Part shown: piece after piece, positions 16,826 to 25,814 of the stretch
How the letters are laid out: each line of letters begins with the position of its first letter
Position numbering within the stretch: position 1 is the first letter of the stretch
Virus record (IMG/VR): IMGVR_UViG_3300021963_006848
Coordinates: 1 to 64,000 of that record
DNA: 64,000 bases
Strand: one strand, 5' to 3'
Source of the DNA: a virus
The notes under the pieces: generated by a model
Told to the model about the DNA's origin: nothing
The model's input: the letters and a program-made list of their open reading frames with translations, nothing else
Database searches by the model: none
Position numbers and translations under genes: made by a program

Positions 16826-17398
16826 CTAAATTAGAGTCTTTTTTACCCCTAAATTATCTTTCCTGTACTTGTTATTCTTATCTAATAAAAAACGGTAATT
16901 TTTGCCTGTAATTCCAACATACTTATCTATTGTGTCTAAATCTTCTCCAGTTATATAAACTTTTTCATAAGTTGTTTTAAAATCATCAATACCTTCTATC
17001 TCTTTATATCCATCTTGAAACGATTCTAAATGCTTTTGTATATCTCCTTCCGGAACTTGTTTATCAGTATACATATAAGGTTCGTGCCAATGTTCTTGTG
17101 AATTTTCAAGAGCAGCATATGCAAAACTTTGTGCCTGCTCTAATGTATTTTCTCTCCAGAGTATAATAACTTTATCAAACTTATCTTTCAATTCTTTATA
17201 CCAATAACCTCCTTGTCCCCATATTGATTTTACAACTACATTATCTCTTTCAAAAATATCGTAGTCAGTTAAAGTTGACTGCCAGAATCGGGAATCGTGG
17301 AAAGGCTCTATTGCTACTAAGTAGTTTAAACTTTCTGCCAAGTAATAAGCTAGGTTTGTTGAACCTGTTCTAGGAAGAGCATAAATTAGTATTCGCAT
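16826..17398 (-). CDS. sulfotransferase-like protein (P-loop fold)
   Basis: ALPRTGST PAPS-binding loop, IEPF, LWREN..Q..S; ends KKTLI. Confidence 0.75.
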   Translation of the reverse strand: MRILIYALPRTGSTNLAYYLAESLNYLVAIEPFHDSRFWQSTLTDYDIFERDNVVVKSIWGQGGYWYKELKDKFDKVIILWRENTLEQAQSFAYAALENSQEHWHEPYMYTDKQVPEGDIQKHLESFQDGYKEIEGIDDFKTTYEKVYITGEDLDTIDKYVGITGKNYRFLLDKNNKYRKDNLGVKKTLI

Positions 17399-17772
17399 AT
17401 TGACTTTCCGTAGTTTTTATAATCTCTATTTACAAAGTTAGATTTAAAATACTCTCCTTTGGGCCGTTCTAACTTATATTCTACTACATGGTAACTTACC
17501 GTAATTTCATCTCCTCTATCAATAGGTCTATTGGCATATAAGTTATACCCATTCTCAGTTTTAACTAGCGTAGTATTAGGACGTTCACTATGGTTACAAA
17601 ATCTACCTAACGGATCACTTTCCCATAAAGTTGCTGTGAGCTTTCTTCCTAGTTTACTAGCTCTAGATTCAACATACTCACCTATAAATTCTTCTTCTTC
17701 AAAATAAGCATTTGAAAAAACTCCAACTCCTTTTATTGGTAATACTATAAGAGTAAAATTAGCTTCTATCAT
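17386..17772 (-). CDS. SET-domain methyltransferase
   Basis: GVGVF, FIGEY, RFCNHS..PN, I..GDEITVSY. Confidence 0.85.
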   Translation of the reverse strand: MIEANFTLIVLPIKGVGVFSNAYFEEEEFIGEYVESRASKLGRKLTATLWESDPLGRFCNHSERPNTTLVKTENGYNLYANRPIDRGDEITVSYHVVEYKLERPKGEYFKSNFVNRDYKNYGKSICEY

Positions 17773-19289
17773 AGTACCTGAATATTATCTATAGAGTTAT
17801 CGTAAATGGTTTTTAAATTTATTTTTAGCTTTTCTCTAAGAGGAGCTAATTTAATATCTAAGTTAAGATCATTATTCTCTTCTATAAGTAATGTATTATT
17901 TAATACCCTTACACCAGCTCCTACTAGGTACCAACTGTACATATCAAATACGTCTGATTTACCTAATACAGATAAGTCCCCATTTTTTGGCGGCCTTATG
18001 CTCCATAACTTTAATAACGCTTTCAGTTTTTCTGGAGTCTCTGTTCTAGTTTTATATGTTCTCCAAAATTCTGTATCTTTTCTTTGAGTCATATAATGGT
18101 AATATAAGAATGCAACACATTCATCATTAAGTTCTCCTATAAGGTTATTGTAGATATCTCGAATACTTTGGTTATCTACTTTTAATGAACTAGGATCTAA
18201 GTTAAGGAGTTGCATTATTACAAGCATTACAGAAGTAGCTTCTAGAGGTTCTGTAAAACCAGCTGATAAGCCGATTGCAATACAATTCTTATGCCATACG
18301 TTTTTAAATCTTCCAGCATTAAATTTAAAGACTTTTGTACTTTCAATTGGGTGCCCTAAAAACTCTTCTACTTCTGCTCTAGCCTCTTGTTCGTTTATAA
18401 ACTTATCATCAAAAATATATCCACACCCCCATCTACCTTTCACAGGAATTTGCCACATCCAGCCATACTTCATAGCTATAGCTCTAGTCTCAGGTCTTAT
18501 AATTTTTTCAGTTTGAGGTAAGAAGAATGGAATAGCAGAATTTACTGTTAGTTGTTTATCGTAAGATACCCACTTTGAATTGTATGCATTACCTATTAAA
18601 AGTCTTTGAAATCCGCTACAATCAAAAATAAAATCACATTCGAAAAATCTTCCATCTTGTATAGATATACCTGTAATCATTTCGGATTCATTCATAAATA
18701 CTTTATCAAATTCTCCATCAACACATATAACACCTCTAGCTTCAGCAACTGAGCGTAAGTACTTAGCAACTTTTCTGGCATTAAAATGAAAAGAATATCC
18801 GACTGAGTTGTTAACTTTGTTACCTTCCTTATAAAAAGGACTTTTCTTTTCTTTAATCAACTTACTTGCAGGTATTACTTCATCTAAATCTTCTTTATTT
18901 GCTAAAGCATTTAGTATAAAGAAAGCACTATTAGTATTAGGTACTCCTGTGTTTGAATTTATATTAAGGTTATTAAGTTGTTTAAAATCTATTGACGAAC
19001 CGGGAGGTGCAGCAAATGGATGTAAGTAGTTTGTTCCATCTCCATTCCAATTTTCAAAATTTATTCCTAGTTTAAAAGTAGCGTCACATTCTTTTTTAAA
19101 CTCACCTAAGTTTATATTTAAACTTTGTAAAAATGCTGGTAATAAAGGTACTGATCCTTCTCCGGCACCTAAGATTCCTACCTTACTGCTTTCTATCAAA
19201 ACTACTCTGGTCTTTTCATAAAGCTGTTTTACTTGTAAAGCTGTTAACCACCCTGCTGTTCCTCCTCCTAATATAACTATATTTCTCAT
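17769..19289 (-). CDS. flavin-dependent tryptophan halogenase family protein
   Basis: GGGTAGW, ATFKLGI (catalytic Lys position), DCSGF, WMWQIP, GFTEPLEATS. Confidence 0.9.
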   Translation of the reverse strand: MRNIVILGGGTAGWLTALQVKQLYEKTRVVLIESSKVGILGAGEGSVPLLPAFLQSLNINLGEFKKECDATFKLGINFENWNGDGTNYLHPFAAPPGSSIDFKQLNNLNINSNTGVPNTNSAFFILNALANKEDLDEVIPASKLIKEKKSPFYKEGNKVNNSVGYSFHFNARKVAKYLRSVAEARGVICVDGEFDKVFMNESEMITGISIQDGRFFECDFIFDCSGFQRLLIGNAYNSKWVSYDKQLTVNSAIPFFLPQTEKIIRPETRAIAMKYGWMWQIPVKGRWGCGYIFDDKFINEQEARAEVEEFLGHPIESTKVFKFNAGRFKNVWHKNCIAIGLSAGFTEPLEATSVMLVIMQLLNLDPSSLKVDNQSIRDIYNNLIGELNDECVAFLYYHYMTQRKDTEFWRTYKTRTETPEKLKALLKLWSIRPPKNGDLSVLGKSDVFDMYSWYLVGAGVRVLNNTLLIEENNDLNLDIKLAPLREKLKINLKTIYDNSIDNIQVL

Positions 19290-19768
19290 ATTAATGTTTT
19301 CTGTTCTTTATGAAGATAAGAATTTTCTGCTAAAAATGCAACTAAAGTATACCTTTGTCCTTCTATTACCGGAAGAACTCTATGTCTTAGAGTAGGTCCA
19401 AATATCATAGCCGTATTTTCTTCTGGTAGTATCTTTGATATTTCTTGATCTATATACTCAAATTCACCACCCGTGAAGTTTTGATTTAAAAAGCAAACTA
19501 AGTTTTCTTTATACTTAATATGATGACGGTGGTAGTTTTCTGTCATCCTTATGTTTTTATCTATTCGTTGAATTCTTAATATATCTATTTCCCCTACTAG
19601 ATTGTGTTTTCTAAATAAGCTTTCTACTTCTACATACAACTCCCCAGTAATATTACAGCCTCTGAAATTATAGATATCATCTTCTACTTTTCTATATTTA
19701 CAGATCTCAGCATATTCTAGAAGATTTCTGTGGAGATCTTTTGGTAAGAAGTTCTTGATAGTTTTCAT
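19286..19768 (-). CDS. 2OG-Fe(II) oxygenase (prolyl-hydroxylase-like)
   Basis: HRH, FLN..F.GGEF, HRV.PV..G.RY; ends KTLI. Confidence 0.8.
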   Translation of the reverse strand: MKTIKNFLPKDLHRNLLEYAEICKYRKVEDDIYNFRGCNITGELYVEVESLFRKHNLVGEIDILRIQRIDKNIRMTENYHRHHIKYKENLVCFLNQNFTGGEFEYIDQEISKILPEENTAMIFGPTLRHRVLPVIEGQRYTLVAFLAENSYLHKEQKTLI

Positions 19769-20472
19769 TAAATTAAAGTACTGCTCTTCTTATAAGGAGG
19801 TTCTATAAAATTAAAATAAAAGTCCTCTAAACTACTATCTATTGTTAAGTTACATTCTATATTCTTTGTATGGTTTGTTATAATAAAGTCAAAAGGCTTA
19901 CCTGTAATTTCCTTGACGTACTTTTCTATCTTACTATTTTCTTTTAGGTTAAAGTATAAGATACTTTCATCATTCTCATGCCACCTAGAAGGAGCTGTCA
20001 TTACAGATGAAAAAATCATGTAAGTATTCTTACTATAGGGTAAACCTGTAGGTATTAGTCTTTTGAAGAAATTACTACATTTTTCTATATCCTGTAAATT
20101 AGAACTAAATCCAATTTCGTTCTCCCAAGCGTTAATAAAGTCTAATGTAGTAGTGCTTGTTAAGATTTGAGCAGCTGTTACGTTATATTCAGCAATAAAC
20201 TTTATTACATATTTCCATGCAGATAAGAACCTATCTAAAGGATCTCTATTAATAGCTATTACAGGATAATCATATCCAAAATGTTCTCTTAGTTTTGAAA
20301 TTCGTTCATGTGCATGTCTACGAGGTTCTAAACCTCTGTCCGCCTGTCTTTGTGCTAGTACATTGTTTGTAGGGTACTTAATAGAGAACCCTGCTAGAAA
20401 ACAAGAACGTTCAAATGCTACTGTAGCTGTTCTAGGTATCTTAAGAAACAAAAACTTGTTATCTACTAACAT
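19768..20472 (-). CDS. sulfotransferase family 2-like protein
   Basis: FLKIPRTA and RDPLDRFLSAW PAPS motifs; ends STLI. Confidence 0.8.
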   Translation of the reverse strand: MLVDNKFLFLKIPRTATVAFERSCFLAGFSIKYPTNNVLAQRQADRGLEPRRHAHERISKLREHFGYDYPVIAINRDPLDRFLSAWKYVIKFIAEYNVTAAQILTSTTTLDFINAWENEIGFSSNLQDIEKCSNFFKRLIPTGLPYSKNTYMIFSSVMTAPSRWHENDESILYFNLKENSKIEKYVKEITGKPFDFIITNHTKNIECNLTIDSSLEDFYFNFIEPPYKKSSTLI

Positions 20473-20489
20473 ATAACCTTTTTATAAAA

Positions 20490-20519
20490 TTAAGATAAGT
20501 GCTTGTCTCTGATCAAACT
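20490..20519 (-). promoter_or_regulatory. class I-type promoter for the sulfotransferase-2OG-halogenase-SET-sulfotransferase operon
   Basis: TTTG followed by TATCTTAA at class I-like spacing. Confidence 0.55.
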
Positions 20520-20604
20520 TATTATAGACTCTATTGCATTTTTCACTTTTACATCTGTTGCGGGTGCTGTGGGTACTACCACAATATCTACTATATTTGC
20601 CATC

Positions 20605-22488
20605 TTATTGTAATTTTTTTGCCATGTTATGAACTAGTATTCCTTCTGCTATATAATTCTGAGTATCTTCAACTGAGATATTATATACTAATCCTTTATA
20701 ATCCTCAAATTCTATCGTCTCGATTAGAACCCAGTTCCCCATAAGGTTAATAAAGTACTTATCGGTTTCTAATTTTTCGACTACTAACTCTTTGTGAAAA
20801 TCTTTATCAGCTTCTGGATCTACTGCTGCCCATTTGATATTACCTTCGAAATCTTTAATAGCAAATGGATGTCCTACTGTAGCTTTAGTTCTTATTCCGT
20901 TTATAACTACAAGCTTATCATTGTAGTCTGATTTCCATATACCTTTTACCTTCTTTGTAACTATATCATTAGTATTAAAGTCAAAAGATTGTACTATATC
21001 TCCAACTTCTATATCTTTGATTTCTTTTTCACCATCTGCTGTAAATACTACAGCGTCGCCTACAAAGCATTGTGCTTGACAAGTCCAGCAAGAATTATAA
21101 CAACTCCACCAGCCGCAATTATATCCACTACACCAGCATGGGTTATGTTGTACTAATGCTATATTGGTTGATTCATCTAGAATAGATAAGAAAATATCTT
21201 GTTCTTCTACATCGAGTTCATAAATTAATTTGGTATCGTAAACCGCATCAAGAGCTACTATTTCTTTCTTTAAAAGCTCATTAGTAGCAACATCTAATAG
21301 AATTACCTTATCTCCTAATTCTACTTGACTAAGAGACTTAAACCTAGTTACTGTACTTCCACTAACTTCTGTATAAAAAGTAGATCTAGTAGAATCATCC
21401 CAAGTAGTTCCATCTTCTAAAGTAATATTCAAATAAACTGTTTCTAAACTAGAGCTGATAAATCCTACAACGTTAGCGGAGTTAACCTGTAATGAGCTCT
21501 CCATTTCTGCAAAAGAAGAAGAAAAAGCTAGGACATCAACAGAACCAGTAGGTAGGTTACTAAATTGAACTGATTTTACTACTGTTCCTTCTTCTACATC
21601 TTGGATAGATATATACTCTCCTGTAGGTGTTACAATTTTTGTATCTTCATCTACGTGGTATACGTTCTTCTGATTATCTGTAGAGAGTTTAGAAATCCAT
21701 TTAATTCTAGATTTATTAGTAAGTGCAGTTGTTCCTGCTTGTAATTCATCGGGCCAAATATCTAAACTATAAGGTGATGTTTGGTGATAAGAACCAAGGT
21801 GTAGTGTATCTAAAGTAGAACCATAAACTAAATCTAAACTTCTAATAATAGAATAACGTCCTTGTATAACATTATTTTCTGAATTGATAAACTCTTGTAT
21901 AAAATATGGTGCTGTAGTATTAGCCACTAACGTGTCATATTCAGTTTGATTTGTTATAGTATGTACTTGAGGGTATACTTTTGCATCATACTGAGGCTGT
22001 ACTGATTTAACTACAACGTTGGGTGCTTTAGTAGCATCAAATCCTGCCGGAATAGCGTACGATTGGCTTTGTATAAGTTCTTGTAAGTTTCCTTTATCTG
22101 CACAATACACATCATCTATTAAAGCTGTACTATCGAATGCCTGTCTAAGAATAAACTTCGTGGGAGAATCTTCTACATAAGGTACTGTGGTAGCATAAGT
22201 ACTTACTTGATAAGGAGTGTATGCAATACCTAAGCTCTCACAAATACTCTGTAGCTTTGTACCTAAAGAAAGATTAGCTCTAAACTTAGGATCTGTTACT
22301 AACTGTTGATCATTAAAGATATAAACTAACTCTGCTATAGAATTTGATTGAAGTAATGCTTCAAGCCCAGAAAAATCTAAATGCGGGATCATACTTTGGT
22401 AGATTCCGGCACTTGTATTTAATTCAACAAGCCTTGCGTTTCCATCATCATCAAGCAAGAAGTCACTTCCTATTAAAACAGCTTTCAT
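20605..22488 (-). CDS. polyprotein: circularly permuted ATP-grasp-like domain (aa 1-277), Hint-1 (278-449), Cys/Trp-rich core (450-473), Hint-2 (474-621), MAKKLQ
   Basis: DFLLD...LVELN, VVVK, IQEFI; Hint-1 HVDEDTKIVTPTG...LVQHN; Hint-2 CFVGDAVVFTADG...TVGHPF...VYNISVE...ILVHN. Confidence 0.8.
   Translation of the reverse strand: MKAVLIGSDFLLDDDGNARLVELNTSAGIYQSMIPHLDFSGLEALLQSNSIAELVYIFNDQQLVTDPKFRANLSLGTKLQSICESLGIAYTPYQVSTYATTVPYVEDSPTKFILRQAFDSTALIDDVYCADKGNLQELIQSQSYAIPAGFDATKAPNVVVKSVQPQYDAKVYPQVHTITNQTEYDTLVANTTAPYFIQEFINSENNVIQGRYSIIRSLDLVYGSTLDTLHLGSYHQTSPYSLDIWPDELQAGTTALTNKSRIKWISKLSTDNQKNVYHVDEDTKIVTPTGEYISIQDVEEGTVVKSVQFSNLPTGSVDVLAFSSSFAEMESSLQVNSANVVGFISSSLETVYLNITLEDGTTWDDSTRSTFYTEVSGSTVTRFKSLSQVELGDKVILLDVATNELLKKEIVALDAVYDTKLIYELDVEEQDIFLSILDESTNIALVQHNPCWCSGYNCGWWSCYNSCWTCQAQCFVGDAVVFTADGEKEIKDIEVGDIVQSFDFNTNDIVTKKVKGIWKSDYNDKLVVINGIRTKATVGHPFAIKDFEGNIKWAAVDPEADKDFHKELVVEKLETDKYFINLMGNWVLIETIEFEDYKGLVYNISVEDTQNYIAEGILVHNMAKKLQ
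21070..21141 (-). other. putative core peptide PCWCSGYNCGWWSCYNSCWTCQAQ between the two Hint domains
   Basis: lies exactly between HN of Hint-1 and Cys1 of Hint-2. Confidence 0.65.
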
Positions 22489-22516
22489 ATTATGAGTTTA
22501 AATTAATTCGTTTATA

Positions 22517-22524
22517 TATAAATA
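22517..22524 (-). promoter_or_regulatory. class II motif TATTTATA upstream of the polyprotein
   Basis: TATTTAT also at 13424, 31433, 33865, 45599, 49646, 50248, 53386 and 62809 upstream of gene starts. Confidence 0.5.
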
Positions 22525-22538
22525 TCTAAGCGGACTGT

Positions 22539-22994
22539 TTATATAAGAGTCTTTGTACTTTTAATTCCGCTTCTTCTAAAATAGCTTATAAATAAGTACT
22601 GTGTTCCTTCTTCCACGCTTTCTAACTCTAGATCTATTCCGAAATCAAAGTAAACTGCTTTATTAGCTTCTGGTACAATTATGCTTTCTTTATATCTTAA
22701 TCCACCCCCAGAATAGTTTTCGTTAATAAAATAGATAATAAGTGCGTAATCTAGATCCTTAAATTGCTTATATATAGTCTTTATACCTTTACTTCTCTTA
22801 CTGAAATACATTTTATCACATTGGTAAGGAATACCAACTCCTAAGAACATGTTTTCAAAATCTATTGCAATCTGATGAGATGGGTATGTAAACCTATAAT
22901 AATTACCATCCGTATCATCTAATGCATACTTACCTTCAATATCGATAAGTCTATTTCGAAAATAATCAGGTAGTATGTTATCGAAGATTATCAT
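22539..22994 (-). CDS. degenerate 2OG-Fe(II) oxygenase-like protein
   Basis: IYFINENYSGGGL and VEEGTQY, but no metal-binding His; ends KTLI. Confidence 0.6.
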   Translation of the reverse strand: MIIFDNILPDYFRNRLIDIEGKYALDDTDGNYYRFTYPSHQIAIDFENMFLGVGIPYQCDKMYFSKRSKGIKTIYKQFKDLDYALIIYFINENYSGGGLRYKESIIVPEANKAVYFDFGIDLELESVEEGTQYLFISYFRRSGIKSTKTLI

Positions 22995-23587
22995 CTAATC
23001 TCTGTTATATTAAAGCTAATGTTTGAACAAATAGCAATTCTAGTTCCTTCTGAATTAGGAGATAAGTTAGGTTTATGTTCTACATCTCCTTTAAAAAATA
23101 TAAAATCTCCTTCGTTTGGCTTAGTTGCATATACCCTACCGTCTTTATCTCTAAGTAACAATGCACCCTCTTCTCCTTGTAAATCATAAGGTACTTGAAC
23201 ATAAAAGCAATAAGTCCAGTCTGTAAGAATAGGTGCATTAATCTTTGTATCCGGAAAGTTAATAGCAGCTGTATGCATATGAAAGCCGTTATCTGGATCT
23301 TTAGAGGTTTTATCTTGTATGTAACTCCATGTTTTACCTACCCAAATTGGTTTAGACTTCTCAGGTATATTGGATAAGCCTTTAGCAATCTTCTTACCGT
23401 ACTTAATAACATGGTCTATTTCTGGGCTATGAACTTTAATCTCTGTTGTATTAAAGTCTGTAGTACCTAATAGCCACTTATTCTGCTTTACTCTATATAT
23501 AATTTCATCTTGTCCGTAGGTCCAATCATATTGAGCTTTATAGATGGTGAGTGTATCACTTACTCTAAATTCTTTTACAGGTATCAT
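22991..23587 (-). CDS. 2OG-Fe(II) oxygenase-like protein
   Basis: HMH, FYV..P....G.L, VEH.P, RIAICSN. Confidence 0.75.
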   Translation of the reverse strand: MIPVKEFRVSDTLTIYKAQYDWTYGQDEIIYRVKQNKWLLGTTDFNTTEIKVHSPEIDHVIKYGKKIAKGLSNIPEKSKPIWVGKTWSYIQDKTSKDPDNGFHMHTAAINFPDTKINAPILTDWTYCFYVQVPYDLQGEEGALLLRDKDGRVYATKPNEGDFIFFKGDVEHKPNLSPNSEGTRIAICSNISFNITEIR

Positions 23588-24120
23588 ATAAGTGTCTTTG
23601 ATTCTTTTTGCTTAAATTCTATAAAGACTGTAAATGTAAGTCTTCCGTCTTTAATAGAAGTCCCAAACGGCTCTTGTACTGCATGGTTGATATTAGCAGG
23701 ATAGCATACAAATCTATTAAAAACATTTTCTACTTCGTCAATCTGAATATAGTTGTCATCATAGAAAGAAGTTCCGGAATTAGGTACTTGAAACGGAGCT
23801 AGATAAATTACTCCTGCGTAGTCTTTCCTACGGTCTTTATGTATACGGTTCTTACTGTACCCTTTCTCTTTTGTAGTATCTTCTAATGTATAATGGAAAT
23901 AACAATCATAAGCTGCTGTTGCAAACTTAGAATCTCTTTTACTTAATTCAGATTTTACAAGATTGGTTACTTTTAATGTAAGTTCGTTTTGCTTTAAACA
24001 TCTAAAACCCTTCCATCCTTGTTCTTCAAACGGAGGAGTATATTCTAACTCTAAAGCTTGATCTCTGATATCCCAGACGTCTTTTAAAAAATCATCTATC
24101 TGAATTAAACCTTGTATCAT
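23584..24120 (-). CDS. 2OG-Fe(II) oxygenase-like protein (DUF6445-like)
   Basis: IDDF, IHKD, AGVIYL, GTSFY, FNR...H, GRLT; ends KTLI. Confidence 0.75.
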   Translation of the reverse strand: MIQGLIQIDDFLKDVWDIRDQALELEYTPPFEEQGWKGFRCLKQNELTLKVTNLVKSELSKRDSKFATAAYDCYFHYTLEDTTKEKGYSKNRIHKDRRKDYAGVIYLAPFQVPNSGTSFYDDNYIQIDEVENVFNRFVCYPANINHAVQEPFGTSIKDGRLTFTVFIEFKQKESKTLI

Positions 24121-24404
24121 ATTAATGTTTTATCTTGTTTAATTACTGAGCTTTCACTGAGGTATTTATCTTCAACTGGTAGCCATTTATGAAGAGGACA
24201 GCCATCATAGAGACGGCTGAATACCTTTCCTTCAAGTAAGCAAGAACATTCACCACAGTACTCTGACCATTTACGGTTATTAAATAGAGTCTCTCTCTTA
24301 GAACATTGTTCACATATTTCATAACGTTCTTGAGCTAGTTTCTTTTGACTCTCTTTTGGATTTATTTTAGTAATCCAGGCAGAGATAATCTCTTTCATAT
24401 CCAT
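24117..24404 (-). CDS. Cys-rich small metal-binding protein
   Basis: CEQC...CGECSC...CPLHKW; ends KTLI. Confidence 0.7.
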   Translation of the reverse strand: MDMKEIISAWITKINPKESQKKLAQERYEICEQCSKRETLFNNRKWSEYCGECSCLLEGKVFSRLYDGCPLHKWLPVEDKYLSESSVIKQDKTLI

Positions 24405-24743: not shown

Positions 24744-24956
24744 CTAACTCTTCTTTAGTCCGTATTTAATCCACTTATACCAGACTCTTTCATGTATATA
24801 GTATTGGATAGGTTTCCAAAGTAATTCAGCTATTCCAAATGCTGCTCCAAACTTAACTGAACCTGTAACAGCCCACATTGTAGCAAATCCAATTGCTGTA
24901 CTAACTACTCTGTATGAGATAGTTTTAGCTATATGTCGTTTCTTTTCTACTATCAT
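24744..24956 (-). CDS. DUF2061-like membrane protein
   Basis: R...KTISYR...YY.HERVW. Confidence 0.75.
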   Translation of the reverse strand: MIVEKKRHIAKTISYRVVSTAIGFATMWAVTGSVKFGAAFGIAELLWKPIQYYIHERVWYKWIKYGLKKS

Positions 24957-25354
24957 AACTTACCCTCCTCTTTCATCTTATTTCGTATGCCTGTAGCTGA
25001 GATGTCTCTAATCTCTTCTGGTGGCATATGCTCAATAACATCGTAACCAACTCCTCTTCCTATATTGATTGATTCAATATCTGGAATGATAATAATTTTT
25101 AACTTACCTTCTTCAATCAAATCTAATAATTCATTAGTTAGGTTACTCAATACCTCTTGAGGTGTCCATGGATTCTTTTCGTCAGGTTCTACATCTCTGA
25201 TAGCTAGTAGAACTCTTTTACCTTCTTTTAATCTTTGGTCTATCAACCAGCGATGCCCTGCATGCCAAGGTTGCCATCTGCCAATAAACATAGAGTACTT
25301 AACATCGTTAGATGAAGACTGAAATGCGGCAGTTGCTAAATATTTACTACTCAT
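24953..25354 (-). CDS. HxGH nucleotidyltransferase (candidate minimal sulfate adenylyltransferase)
   Basis: GRWQPWHAGH and ISATGIR; adjacent to cysC. Confidence 0.75.
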   Translation of the reverse strand: MSSKYLATAAFQSSSNDVKYSMFIGRWQPWHAGHRWLIDQRLKEGKRVLLAIRDVEPDEKNPWTPQEVLSNLTNELLDLIEEGKLKIIIIPDIESINIGRGVGYDVIEHMPPEEIRDISATGIRNKMKEEGKL

Positions 25355-25376
25355 ATCTTAATGTATGAATTTTAAT

Positions 25377-25814
25377 TTAAAGCTCCAACTTATCTACTAA
25401 CTCTCTATAAGTATGGAAAGGATCCTTATTTGTAGTATCGACATCTAAGTAATTTTCCAAAGGCGGTTCGTAATTTTCTACATGAAAATGATTACGTCCT
25501 CTATCTTCAGATGTATGTACATAAATTTCAATTAAATCTTTTCCTAACCTAGCTTTAAAAGCTTCTCGTTGATCTCTATAAGGAGAAACTAAAGATACAA
25601 ATACGCAGTATCCTTTCTCATTTAAAAAGTAAGCTATATTCTGAGCTAGTTCTATATTCTTTCTTCTTCCAGCTTCTGAATAATCTTTGTTTTCAAAAAT
25701 TTCTCTAATATCATCTCCATCAACTGTTATAGCAGAATGATGTACGTGAATTTTCAATGAGGTAGCTAAGGTAGTCTTACCTGCTCCAGGTTGTCCTGTA
25801 AACCAGTATATCAT
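25377..25814 (-). CDS. cysC: adenylylsulfate (APS) kinase
   Basis: WFTGQPGAGKTT, DGDDIR, SLVSPY, YEPP. Confidence 0.9.
   Translation of the reverse strand: MIYWFTGQPGAGKTTLATSLKIHVHHSAITVDGDDIREIFENKDYSEAGRRKNIELAQNIAYFLNEKGYCVFVSLVSPYRDQREAFKARLGKDLIEIYVHTSEDRGRNHFHVENYEPPLENYLDVDTTNKDPFHTYRELVDKLEL

Follow-up and report, generated by a model that had tools for sequence, protein, structure and literature searches.

A phage protein joining an ATP-grasp ligase, two Hint domains and a six-cysteine segment is a candidate self-processing precursor in a putative peptide-tailoring island

The window analyzed here is a stretch of 64,000 nucleotides (positions 1 to 64,000) of the IMG/VR virus record IMGVR_UViG_3300021963_006848, a 97-kb record estimated to be 54% complete, with a single-strand gene layout and genes that also encode a DNA polymerase, GroEL and glycosyltransferases. 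It contains a gene from an uncultured marine phage whose product, here termed P0001, combines in a single protein an ATP-grasp ligase, a one-sided Hint domain (Hint-1), a 24-residue segment rich in Cys and Trp (the core) and a fully armed Hint domain (Hint-2). From the folds, conserved residues, domain architectures and gene linkage described below, we give an even chance to the reading that P0001 is a self-processing precursor at the center of a phage peptide-tailoring island.

The open reading frame (ORF), which a preliminary description made from the nucleotide letters alone had taken for such a precursor, is real; it is not a chance ORF, as relatives are encoded on 152 viral contigs and form 351 clusters when grouped at 50% identity. 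A word-indexed search found 142 relatives and an exhaustive profile search at least 351 such clusters, 127 of them below E 1e-30; full-length relatives share 40–98% identity with P0001, and the IMG/VR contigs encoding them reach 333 kb. The members are all viral or metagenomic, every named one is a “hypothetical protein”, and what they have in common is the architecture of ATP-grasp followed by Hint-1. No relative of P0001 was found by a scan of 185,579 species genomes, and none by a scan of viral contigs with the family member P0200. A tblastn search of 50,697 deposited phage records with P0001, P0063 and P0200 left the ligase–Hint-1 part (the first 470 residues of P0001) unmatched and returned Hint-2 matches only, as inteins in helicase and other genes, and megablast of 13 kb around the P0001 gene gave no match. 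Translation confirmed the 24-residue segment with its six Cys, four Trp and two Tyr, and placed His278, His448-Asn449, Pro450, Cys474, T537-x-x-H540, His620-Asn621 and Met622 where they had been reported. As also noted previously, there is no Cys, Ser or Thr at the +1 position of either Hint, Pro450 following Hint-1 and Met622 following Hint-2.

Hint-1 gave no Pfam or PHROG sequence-family match and was examined by structure. Hint-1 and the N-terminal domain (aa 1–277) were each modeled with AlphaFold (AF2) from a family alignment of 54–55 sequences. The Hint-1 model, with a mean predicted local distance difference test score (pLDDT) of 87, matched mini-inteins, BIL domains and Hedgehog Hint domains in Foldseek (E 1.6e-7, probability 1.0). 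VIA-align superposed it on the NpuDnaB intein with Z 16.3 and a root-mean-square deviation of 2.1 Å over 139 of 142 residues, and the BIL domain of the Tetrahymena BUBL protein (6tmm, 6y75; Z 16.2) was also among the best structural matches. Model residues 9 to 180 (aa 278 to 449) cover the intein from residue 1 to its last residue, so that His278 stands at the nucleophile position and Asn449 at that of the terminal Asn, and the domain limits given in the preliminary description proved exact. Structure and conservation also bear out its view that Hint-1 has lost Cys1 and the block-B TxxH motif and has kept the terminal His-Asn. Among 126 diverse members of the superfamily, the set used for all conservation values on the ligase and Hint-1, no Hint-1 position other than His448 (93%) and Asn449 (96%) is conserved to 85% or above. 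The residue at 278 varies among His, Lys, Gly, Leu and Ser, Trp363 of P0001 occupies the place of the block-B His, and the counterpart of the block-F His of inteins, position 431, is Asp in 75 sequences and His in 30.

Set against an intein, Hint-1 therefore has the fold and the terminal His-Asn and is without the residue-1 and TxxH functions and the +1 nucleophile; lacking a nucleophile at position 1, it would have no acyl group to transfer to a flank. Judged by these residues, Hint-1 appears to retain what Asn cyclization needs in inteins and nothing for the acyl shift at the N-terminus. It is most economically read as a dedicated C-terminal self-cleaving module releasing whatever comes after it, and a role in C-terminal release has been proposed for pretoxin-Hint (PT-HINT) domains. 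Class-2 inteins such as KlbA also have no position-1 nucleophile, and KlbA is among the structural matches of Hint-1. By analogy, a direct attack of Cys451 on the Tyr277-His278 bond could splice out Hint-1 and leave the Cys-rich tail fused to the ligase. The +2 Cys that this would call for shows 86% conservation, but the nucleophile would then act from +2 rather than +1, the block-B TxxH is missing, the superfamily varies at residues −1 and 1, and no family member lacks Hint-1, a constancy not seen with mobile inteins, all of which makes such splicing highly improbable.

Hint-2 was identified directly from sequence, with a Pfam Intein_splicing match (PF14890, E 1.3e-12, 48.2 bits against a curated cut-off of 35.8). 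The PF07591 score was 23.7 bits in P0001 and 76.7 bits in its relative P0256. Its closest solved sequences are the BIL2 domain of Tetrahymena BUBL (6tmm/6y75) and a BIL domain of Clostridium thermocellum (2lwy), and the family profile matched the PDB BIL domains at E 1e-12 (BIL2, 6tmm). Cys474, Thr537, His540, His620 and Asn621 are invariant in all 62 Hint-2 sequences, at identities down to 26%. The +1 residue is Met, Phe, Val, Ala or Ile, always hydrophobic and non-nucleophilic, and the residues preceding Cys474 are small (Gly, Ser, Gln or Ala). In each of the 62 a Lys-containing tail of 5–10 residues follows Hint-2. Hint-2 thus has both the sequence membership and the residues of a BIL or intein splicing domain (Cys1, T-x-x-H, His-Asn and a non-nucleophilic +1), in keeping with the earlier assignment of Cys1, TxxH (TVGH) and His-Asn to it. 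The expectation that the Hint-1 His-Asn and the Hint-2 Cys1 would stay fixed in homologs held for the Hint-2 Cys1 and nearly so for the Hint-1 His-Asn.

In the reading that we prefer, Hint-1, inactive at its own N-terminus, would stay fused to the ligase. Asn449, aided by His448 and the block-F Asp431, would cyclize and break the Asn449-Pro450 bond, freeing the N-terminus of the Cys/Trp-rich segment; we judge cleavage at Asn449 likely. At the other end, Cys474 and the T-x-x-H of Hint-2 would convert the Gln473-Cys474 bond to a thioester, a step that we consider highly probable, and the C-terminus of the segment would be detached as an activated acyl group. This could then be hydrolyzed, captured by a thiol or an amine, or closed on the peptide itself. 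Asn621 would shed the short Lys-Lys tail, and Hint-2 would in this way remove itself together with the C-terminal tag. The net product would be a free 24-residue, six-Cys peptide made without a protease, and we lean slightly toward such a release. A Trp halogenase, 2-oxoglutarate (2OG) oxygenases and sulfotransferases with their own supply of 3'-phosphoadenosine-5'-phosphosulfate (PAPS), all encoded next to P0001, would most likely decorate the released peptide, and the balance tilts to about the same small extent toward the 24-mer being their substrate.

Excision by two Hint domains, as the preliminary description proposed, agrees with the retention of the Hint-2 chemistry residues throughout the Hint-2 forms, but it is not the general mechanism of the family. 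Three architectures were counted among 176 distinct close sequences. Hint-2 forms account for 62 of these, and 107 are short, one-Hint forms in which the protein ends 4–12 residues past the last Cys. In the other seven (S74 forms), a C-terminal module opening with a Ser-Asp motif takes the place of Hint-2. The link of this module to Peptidase_S74 (PF13884) comes from the more distant P0176 (25.3 bits against a cut-off of 22), where the match starts at the Ser-Asp cleavage motif, and from weak matches in P0064, P0072 and P0114 (E 0.007–0.04). The C-terminus of P0064 also matched the C-terminal end of phrog_6121, a virion-protein PHROG (E 1.5e-7), and a profile search of the module against PDB sequences gave no match. 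Peptidase_S74 is a self-cleaving intramolecular chaperone of phage fibers, and the use of a self-cleaving module as an alternative to Hint-2 argues that a free C-terminus of the tail matters. A FastTree phylogeny of the ligase and Hint-1 (74 rows, made up of one in two Hint-2 forms, one in three short forms and the complete set of S74 forms) placed the Hint-2 forms as a monophyletic clade on one side of a branch with 100% support, and the S74 forms arose at least twice inside the sister clade. Because the same peptide ends the protein in the larger sister clade, Hint-2 would be an add-on whose effect is to make the C-terminus traceless or activated, and the mechanism would not center on it.

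The core was not confidently folded in the model (pLDDT <50 for aa 450–473, without metal or disulfides). Within two close clades its framework, x-C-x-C-x4-C-G-x3-C-x3-C-x2-C, is conserved, and the mean pairwise identity of the cores (0.61–0.64) equals that of the domains (0.55–0.64), the non-Cys core columns evolving only somewhat faster (0.46–0.50). The hypervariable Cys/aromatic core that the preliminary description anticipated in homologs was therefore not found, and it is only on comparing deep clades that the tails become variable, to the point of defying alignment. There, tail length runs from 2 to >160 residues and the Cys patterns are wholly different. Cys-rich tails of 20–160 aa with these differing frameworks nevertheless always start right after the His-Asn of a Hint, in P0238 after that of the second Hint. 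The absence of Asp and Glu from the core, which had also been pointed out, holds for P0001 and not for the family as a whole. Lys follows a strict pattern. Each of 106 short tails has exactly one, lying within the last four residues in 105 of them, the seven S74 forms have a single Lys just upstream of the Ser-Asp motif, and in the Hint-2 clade Lys is absent from the core (0 of 56) and always present in the short tail beyond Hint-2. A C-P-K motif occurs mid-tail in deeper clades. A role for the single tail Lys as the chemical partner of the thioester was considered and set aside, the residue being more simply part of a Lys-hydrophobic C-terminal tag. The simplest reading is that the primary product ends in such a tag, like the KTLI ending of the neighboring proteins described below.

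These data also bear on the fate of the thioester. After cyclization of Asn449, the amine of Pro450 or one of the six thiols could attack it to give a head-to-tail ring or a thiolactone. The arrangement of a C-cleaving Hint, a peptide and an N-cleaving Hint is that of engineered twin-intein constructs, both sets of catalytic residues are under strong selection and the cores of the clade offer no competing Lys. However, the peptide starts with Pro-Cys instead of Cys, leaving the usual S-to-N shift without its five-membered route, and the same peptide is kept in the 107 relatives without any thioester-forming domain. Ring closure of the 24-mer is judged unlikely, and cyclization appears improbable as the explanation of the system.

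Relatives without a core were informative about the link between the segment and the tailoring genes. P0058 (locus L006) has a 7-residue, Cys-free spacer instead of the core, and the 74.6-kb record of this locus is without the halogenase and without either sulfotransferase, all three of which stand at the same positions in L005, its nearest relative. The whole records of two tandem-Hint, core-less loci (L126 and L127) likewise contain neither the halogenase nor the sulfotransferases. When loci with full flanks are compared, a halogenase gene accompanies 26 of the 37 that have a Trp in the tail and none of the seven without (Fisher 0.0008), an association that is suggestive only, as the loci are not phylogenetically independent. 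As a substrate, the tail would be the likeliest choice for the halogenase at a minimum and for some of the hydroxylation–sulfation machinery. Spacers of 0–6 residues were also seen in ligase-Hint-Hint-Hint relatives (P0230, P0256, P0257, P0259 and P0265; loci L126 and L127), where the final residue after the last His-Asn is Lys and, in several, the Asn of the first Hint abuts Cys1 of the next directly.

Several observations weigh against a released and decorated peptide. The case for it is built from folds, residue conservation, architectures and gene linkage, every chemical step being deduced from them. Pro at +1 is reported to hinder C-terminal cleavage in engineered inteins, and it is the +1 residue of Hint-1 in P0001 and in 55 of the 62 Hint-2-clade sequences (the sister clade has Ser, in 50 of 107, or Gly, Ala, Pro or Thr). 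At 32–39% completeness, the core-less records are fragments. Within clades the core is as conserved as the enzyme domains, which would also fit a structural metal-binding module. Loci L086–L088 have tails of 2–6 residues and still keep the sulfotransferases, so that a long Cys-rich tail cannot be a requirement of every island enzyme. Arrays in which two or three Hints follow one another with spacers of 0–6 residues suggest that the extra Hints may be self-removing passengers. Finally, a giant repetitive fiber-like protein (1575–2223 aa) is encoded directly 3' of the island in several relatives (L082, 14228–20653; L053; L071) and could be an alternative substrate for the hydroxylation and sulfation enzymes.

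These points would be accommodated if the Cys-rich segment were never released and formed, as a metal-binding (Zn or Fe-S) or disulfide module, the C-terminal functional end of the ligase–Hint-1 protein. Hint-1 would then be structural or substrate-binding, Hint-2 and S74 would be a self-removing appendage or a selfish intein-like passenger, and the enzymes would decorate, for example, virion fibers. The Cys framework and adjoining Gly, conserved as strongly as the domains, the trivial spacers and tiny tails, the persistence of sulfotransferases beside the latter and the fiber-like genes adjoining some islands all speak for this view, and tail-collar or collagen-like proteins have been proposed as substrates of operons combining 2OG oxygenase, sulfotransferase and PAPS genes (Iyer et al. 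2010, PMC2938197). It does not, however, lead one to expect His-Asn as the only near-universal pair in a Hint with a dead N-terminal site, tails that are unalignable between clades yet always start at the His-Asn, or the loss of halogenase and sulfotransferases from core-less relatives, and we regard it as a minority possibility.

The N-terminal domain matched no Pfam family at E up to 10 and no PHROG family at E up to 1. In its model (mean pLDDT 87), the best Foldseek match was eukaryotic glutathione synthetase (GS; E 7e-6). The top 11 VIA matches were all ligases of the GspS/YgiC/GS type (Z 8.7–6.0, with eukaryotic GS, YgiC/YjfC and GspS at 8.7–7.2, YgiC itself at 8.7 and GspS at 8.3), values that are middling and evidence of the ATP-grasp fold, not of function. 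Further matches were YjfC, trypanothione synthetase and Cp1B, identified as the E-64 ligase (PMC12568646), followed by TTLL, RimK and LysX/ArgX. Classical, non-permuted ATP-grasps (RimK, LysX, Ddl and E. coli GshB) aligned only with residues ~50–270 and left the N-terminal D9...E22-x-N24 hairpin unaligned, in agreement with a permuted motif order. That order is the one found in eukaryotic glutathione synthetase. The Mg/ATP-binding set (Asp, Glu-x-Asn, two Lys and Arg) is present with Glu-x-Asn ahead of the Lys motifs, the residues being assigned to functions by motif and not by a superposed ligand, and D9, E22, N24, D107, R115, D125, K161 and R216 are 97–99% conserved. Fold matches and conservation thus uphold the circular permutation suggested in the preliminary description, and the domain, judging by these residues, is clearly under selection as an enzyme. 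It is predicted to be one of those amide ligases that prime the C-terminal carboxylate of a peptide or protein for amine attack, its substrate probably being the peptide or a partner. The glutathionylspermidine synthetases, YgiC/YjfC, eukaryotic GS and Cp1B resemble it in fold (Z 8.7–6.5) and, as in permuted eukaryotic GS, in the order of the metal-binding and Lys motifs, and all are carboxylate–amine ligases, as proposed here. They differ in sharing only 10–16% identity with the much smaller phage domain (277 aa), and no other member of the group is fused to a Hint domain.

A further reading is that of a conjugation device, in which an amine or hydroxyl group on a second molecule (a protein Lys, a polyamine, a lipid or a cell-wall precursor) would capture the Hint-2 thioester. 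In the one-Hint clade, the place of the thioester would be taken by an acyl-phosphate that the ATP-grasp would form on the C-terminal carboxylate. The peptide, or the whole ligase–Hint–peptide protein, would thereby become attached to a target, as in Hedgehog cholesteroylation or the ubiquitin-like conjugation of Tetrahymena BUBL/BIL. The identity of the nearest solved relatives of Hint-2 is consistent with this, as are the small residues before Cys474, which suit an exposed acyl donor, and the nearest ATP-grasp folds (GspS, YgiC, GS, TTLL, RimK and LysX), all of which activate a peptide or protein carboxylate for amine attack. The KTLI tag shared by six island proteins likewise hints at a common docking or acceptor system. 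On the other hand, the ATP-grasp is no less conserved in the Hint-2 clade, although activation there would not call for it, and the S74 forms would leave a plain carboxylate; conjugation is accordingly viewed as rather unlikely.

The genes around the precursor were compared by tblastn of the window neighbors against 80 related loci and by clustering of all ORFs, full flanks being available for 29 loci (Table 1). The precursor with its core and the tightly linked tailoring enzymes together have the makeup of a biosynthetic system for a ribosomally synthesized and post-translationally modified peptide (RiPP).

Table 1. Domains of P0001 and genes of the surrounding island in window coordinates (domain functions are predictions).
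Feature	Coordinates	Strand	Evidence and occurrence
Whole precursor gene P0001, 627 aa	20605..22488	-	translated ORF
aa 1–277, permuted ATP-grasp amide-ligase domain (glutathione synthetase/GspS/YgiC type)	21658..22488	-	AF2, Foldseek, VIA
aa 278–449, Hint-1 without Cys1 or TxxH, terminal His448-Asn449	21142..21657	-	AF2, Foldseek, VIA-align, conservation
aa 450–473, core, 24 residues	21070..21141	-	6 Cys, 4 Trp, 2 Tyr; no Lys, no Asp/Glu
aa 474–621, Hint-2, intein/BIL-type, Cys474, T537-x-x-H540, H620-N621	20626..21069	-	PF14890, PDB BIL domains
aa 622–627 and stop, short Lys-Lys tail 3' of Hint-2	20605..20625	-	sequence
Conserved 37-aa ORF, start 1 nt past the precursor stop codon	20490..20603	-	tblastn
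Sulfotransferase-like gene (Sulfotransfer_2)	19768..20472	-	PF03567 E 9e-5; 76/80 loci, 29/29 fully flanked
2OG-Fe(II) oxygenase-like gene, 160 aa	19286..19768	-	phrog_61 E 5e-12; family in 29/29 loci
Flavin-dependent tryptophan halogenase	17769..19289	-	PF04820 E 5.6e-107; 28/29 fully flanked loci
SET-domain protein, between halogenase and second sulfotransferase	17386..17772	-	PF00856 E 6e-12
Second sulfotransferase-like gene, 190 aa, N-terminal PRTGST, ends KTLI	16826..17398	-	28/29 loci; no Pfam match
Three 2OG-Fe(II) oxygenase-like genes (151, 198, 178 aa)	22539..24120	-	phrog_81, DUF6445; 198-aa family in 29/29 loci
95-aa Cys-rich small protein, always adjoining the precursor in relatives	24117..24404	-	76/80 loci, 28/29 fully flanked
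PAPS-supply genes: 70-aa membrane protein, 133-aa nucleotidyltransferase-like, adenosine 5'-phosphosulfate (APS) kinase	24744..25814	-	PF01583 E 3.6e-19, PF01467 E 3e-4; 22–26/29 loci

The gene order is rearranged between the two clades and the gene set is kept. The PRTGST motif of the second sulfotransferase-like protein is presumably of the PAPS-binding type. Other island genes among the fully flanked loci encode a GDSL hydrolase (13 loci) and a radical S-adenosylmethionine (SAM) enzyme (9 loci), and more distant superfamily members lie in similar islands in which radical SAM is more frequent and the halogenase rarer. The radical SAM enzyme (weak PF04055; L007, 13527–14594) and the GDSL/SGNH hydrolase are found in many one-Hint or distant loci (L053, L071, L091–L125) and are absent near P0001, and the SET-domain gene is confined to islands of the Hint-2 clade (6 of 80 loci). 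By tblastn the 37-aa ORF, which falls below the length of default ORF lists, was detected immediately 3' of the precursor in both clades, the core-less L006 included; its product invariably terminates in KHLS or something very similar and has no family match. In the ESM Atlas, the 95-aa Cys protein matched nothing but viral hypothetical proteins.

Six island proteins of unrelated folds (genes within 16826–24404, minus strand) end in (K/S)TLI, namely the 190-aa and 234-aa sulfotransferase-like proteins, three 2OG-like proteins and the 95-aa Cys protein, and the corresponding proteins in other loci end in KLI, SLI, KLL or NII (L082). An artefact of overlapping start codons was considered and rejected, because both codons and stop codons differ among the genes, two of which have no overlap with the next. 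The variation in codons and stop codons indicates that the ending is selected at the protein level, and it may be a docking, sorting or acceptor tag. In the most far-reaching form of the precursor reading, P0001 would be a natural protease-free peptide factory: the opposed Hints would excise a thioester-ended, six-Cys, Trp-rich peptide, which would be ring-closed or ligated (by itself or by the ATP-grasp) and receive conotoxin-like decorations (bromo-Trp, hydroxy-Pro, sulfo-Tyr) from the tagged enzymes. So complete a version is doubtful.

Individual traits of P0001 recall several known systems. In PT-HINT domains and type-A BIL domains, a Hint also precedes a variable C-terminal cargo thought to be released by autoproteolysis, and a non-nucleophilic +1 likewise gives cleavage rather than splicing. 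Their cargo is a toxin domain, whereas here it is a 20–45 residue Cys-rich peptide, and their N-terminal partner serves secretion or trafficking where P0001 has an ATP-grasp ligase; moreover, the phage Hint-1 lacks the whole N-terminal catalytic set and its family is confined to phages. Engineered twin-intein and split-intein circular ligation of peptides and proteins (SICLOPPS) constructs share with P0001 the order of C-cleaving Hint, peptide and thioester-forming Hint, with the catalytic ends toward the peptide. P0001, by contrast, is natural and ligase-fused, its peptide starts with Pro-Cys and not Cys, and it has two separate full Hint domains where SICLOPPS uses the halves of one split intein; cyclization in P0001 would be hypothetical. 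Tetrahymena BUBL polyproteins (BIL – ubiquitin-like – BIL) also flank a small cargo with Hint/BIL domains and turn its C-terminus into a thioester, as would P0001, but that cargo is ubiquitin-like and is conjugated to Lys, unlike the six-Cys peptide here. Among RiPPs, enzyme-fused precursors (borosins, OphMA type) similarly carry the core at the C-terminal end of an enzyme, and those with peptide Trp halogenases or Tyr sulfotransferases have tightly linked tailoring enzymes; P0001 differs in having neither a leader peptide nor a separate protease, with putative release by Hints and modifications predicted from genes. In the cyanophage Syn9 (gp49–58), tandem arrays that likewise bring unrelated 2OG oxygenases, several in number, together with Trp halogenases have been reported, with no known substrate (Iyer et al. 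2010, PMC2938197), and no ligase–Hint–peptide gene has been described in these arrays.

The preliminary description knew of no system with this architecture, and literature searches and family libraries revealed none: the combination of a ligase, a C-cleaving Hint and a Cys-rich peptide, with or without a second Hint, turned up in none of the papers or libraries searched. The parts are of known kinds (ATP-grasp, Hint/BIL, S74 and tailoring enzymes). New here are the clade of twin-Hint forms, the alternative use of S74, the relatives with tandem Hints or no core that are missing the tailoring genes, and the 37-aa partner ORF. The family provides a concrete, co-inherited candidate substrate for the marine phage 2OG oxygenase/Trp halogenase arrays known since 2010 (PMC2938197). 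If the proposed chemistry is true, this would be the first natural peptide release by Hint autoproteolysis at both ends and a built-in counterpart of the twin-intein tools, and the module could be used as a protease-free, thioester-generating unit; if the peptide-factory reading holds as well, it would represent a new class of ribosomal natural product together with the long-sought substrate of the phage dioxygenase/halogenase islands. An abundant unannotated family present only in uncultured large phages may thus mark an unrecognized peptide (a toxin, signal, metal binder or virion decoration) in surface waters.

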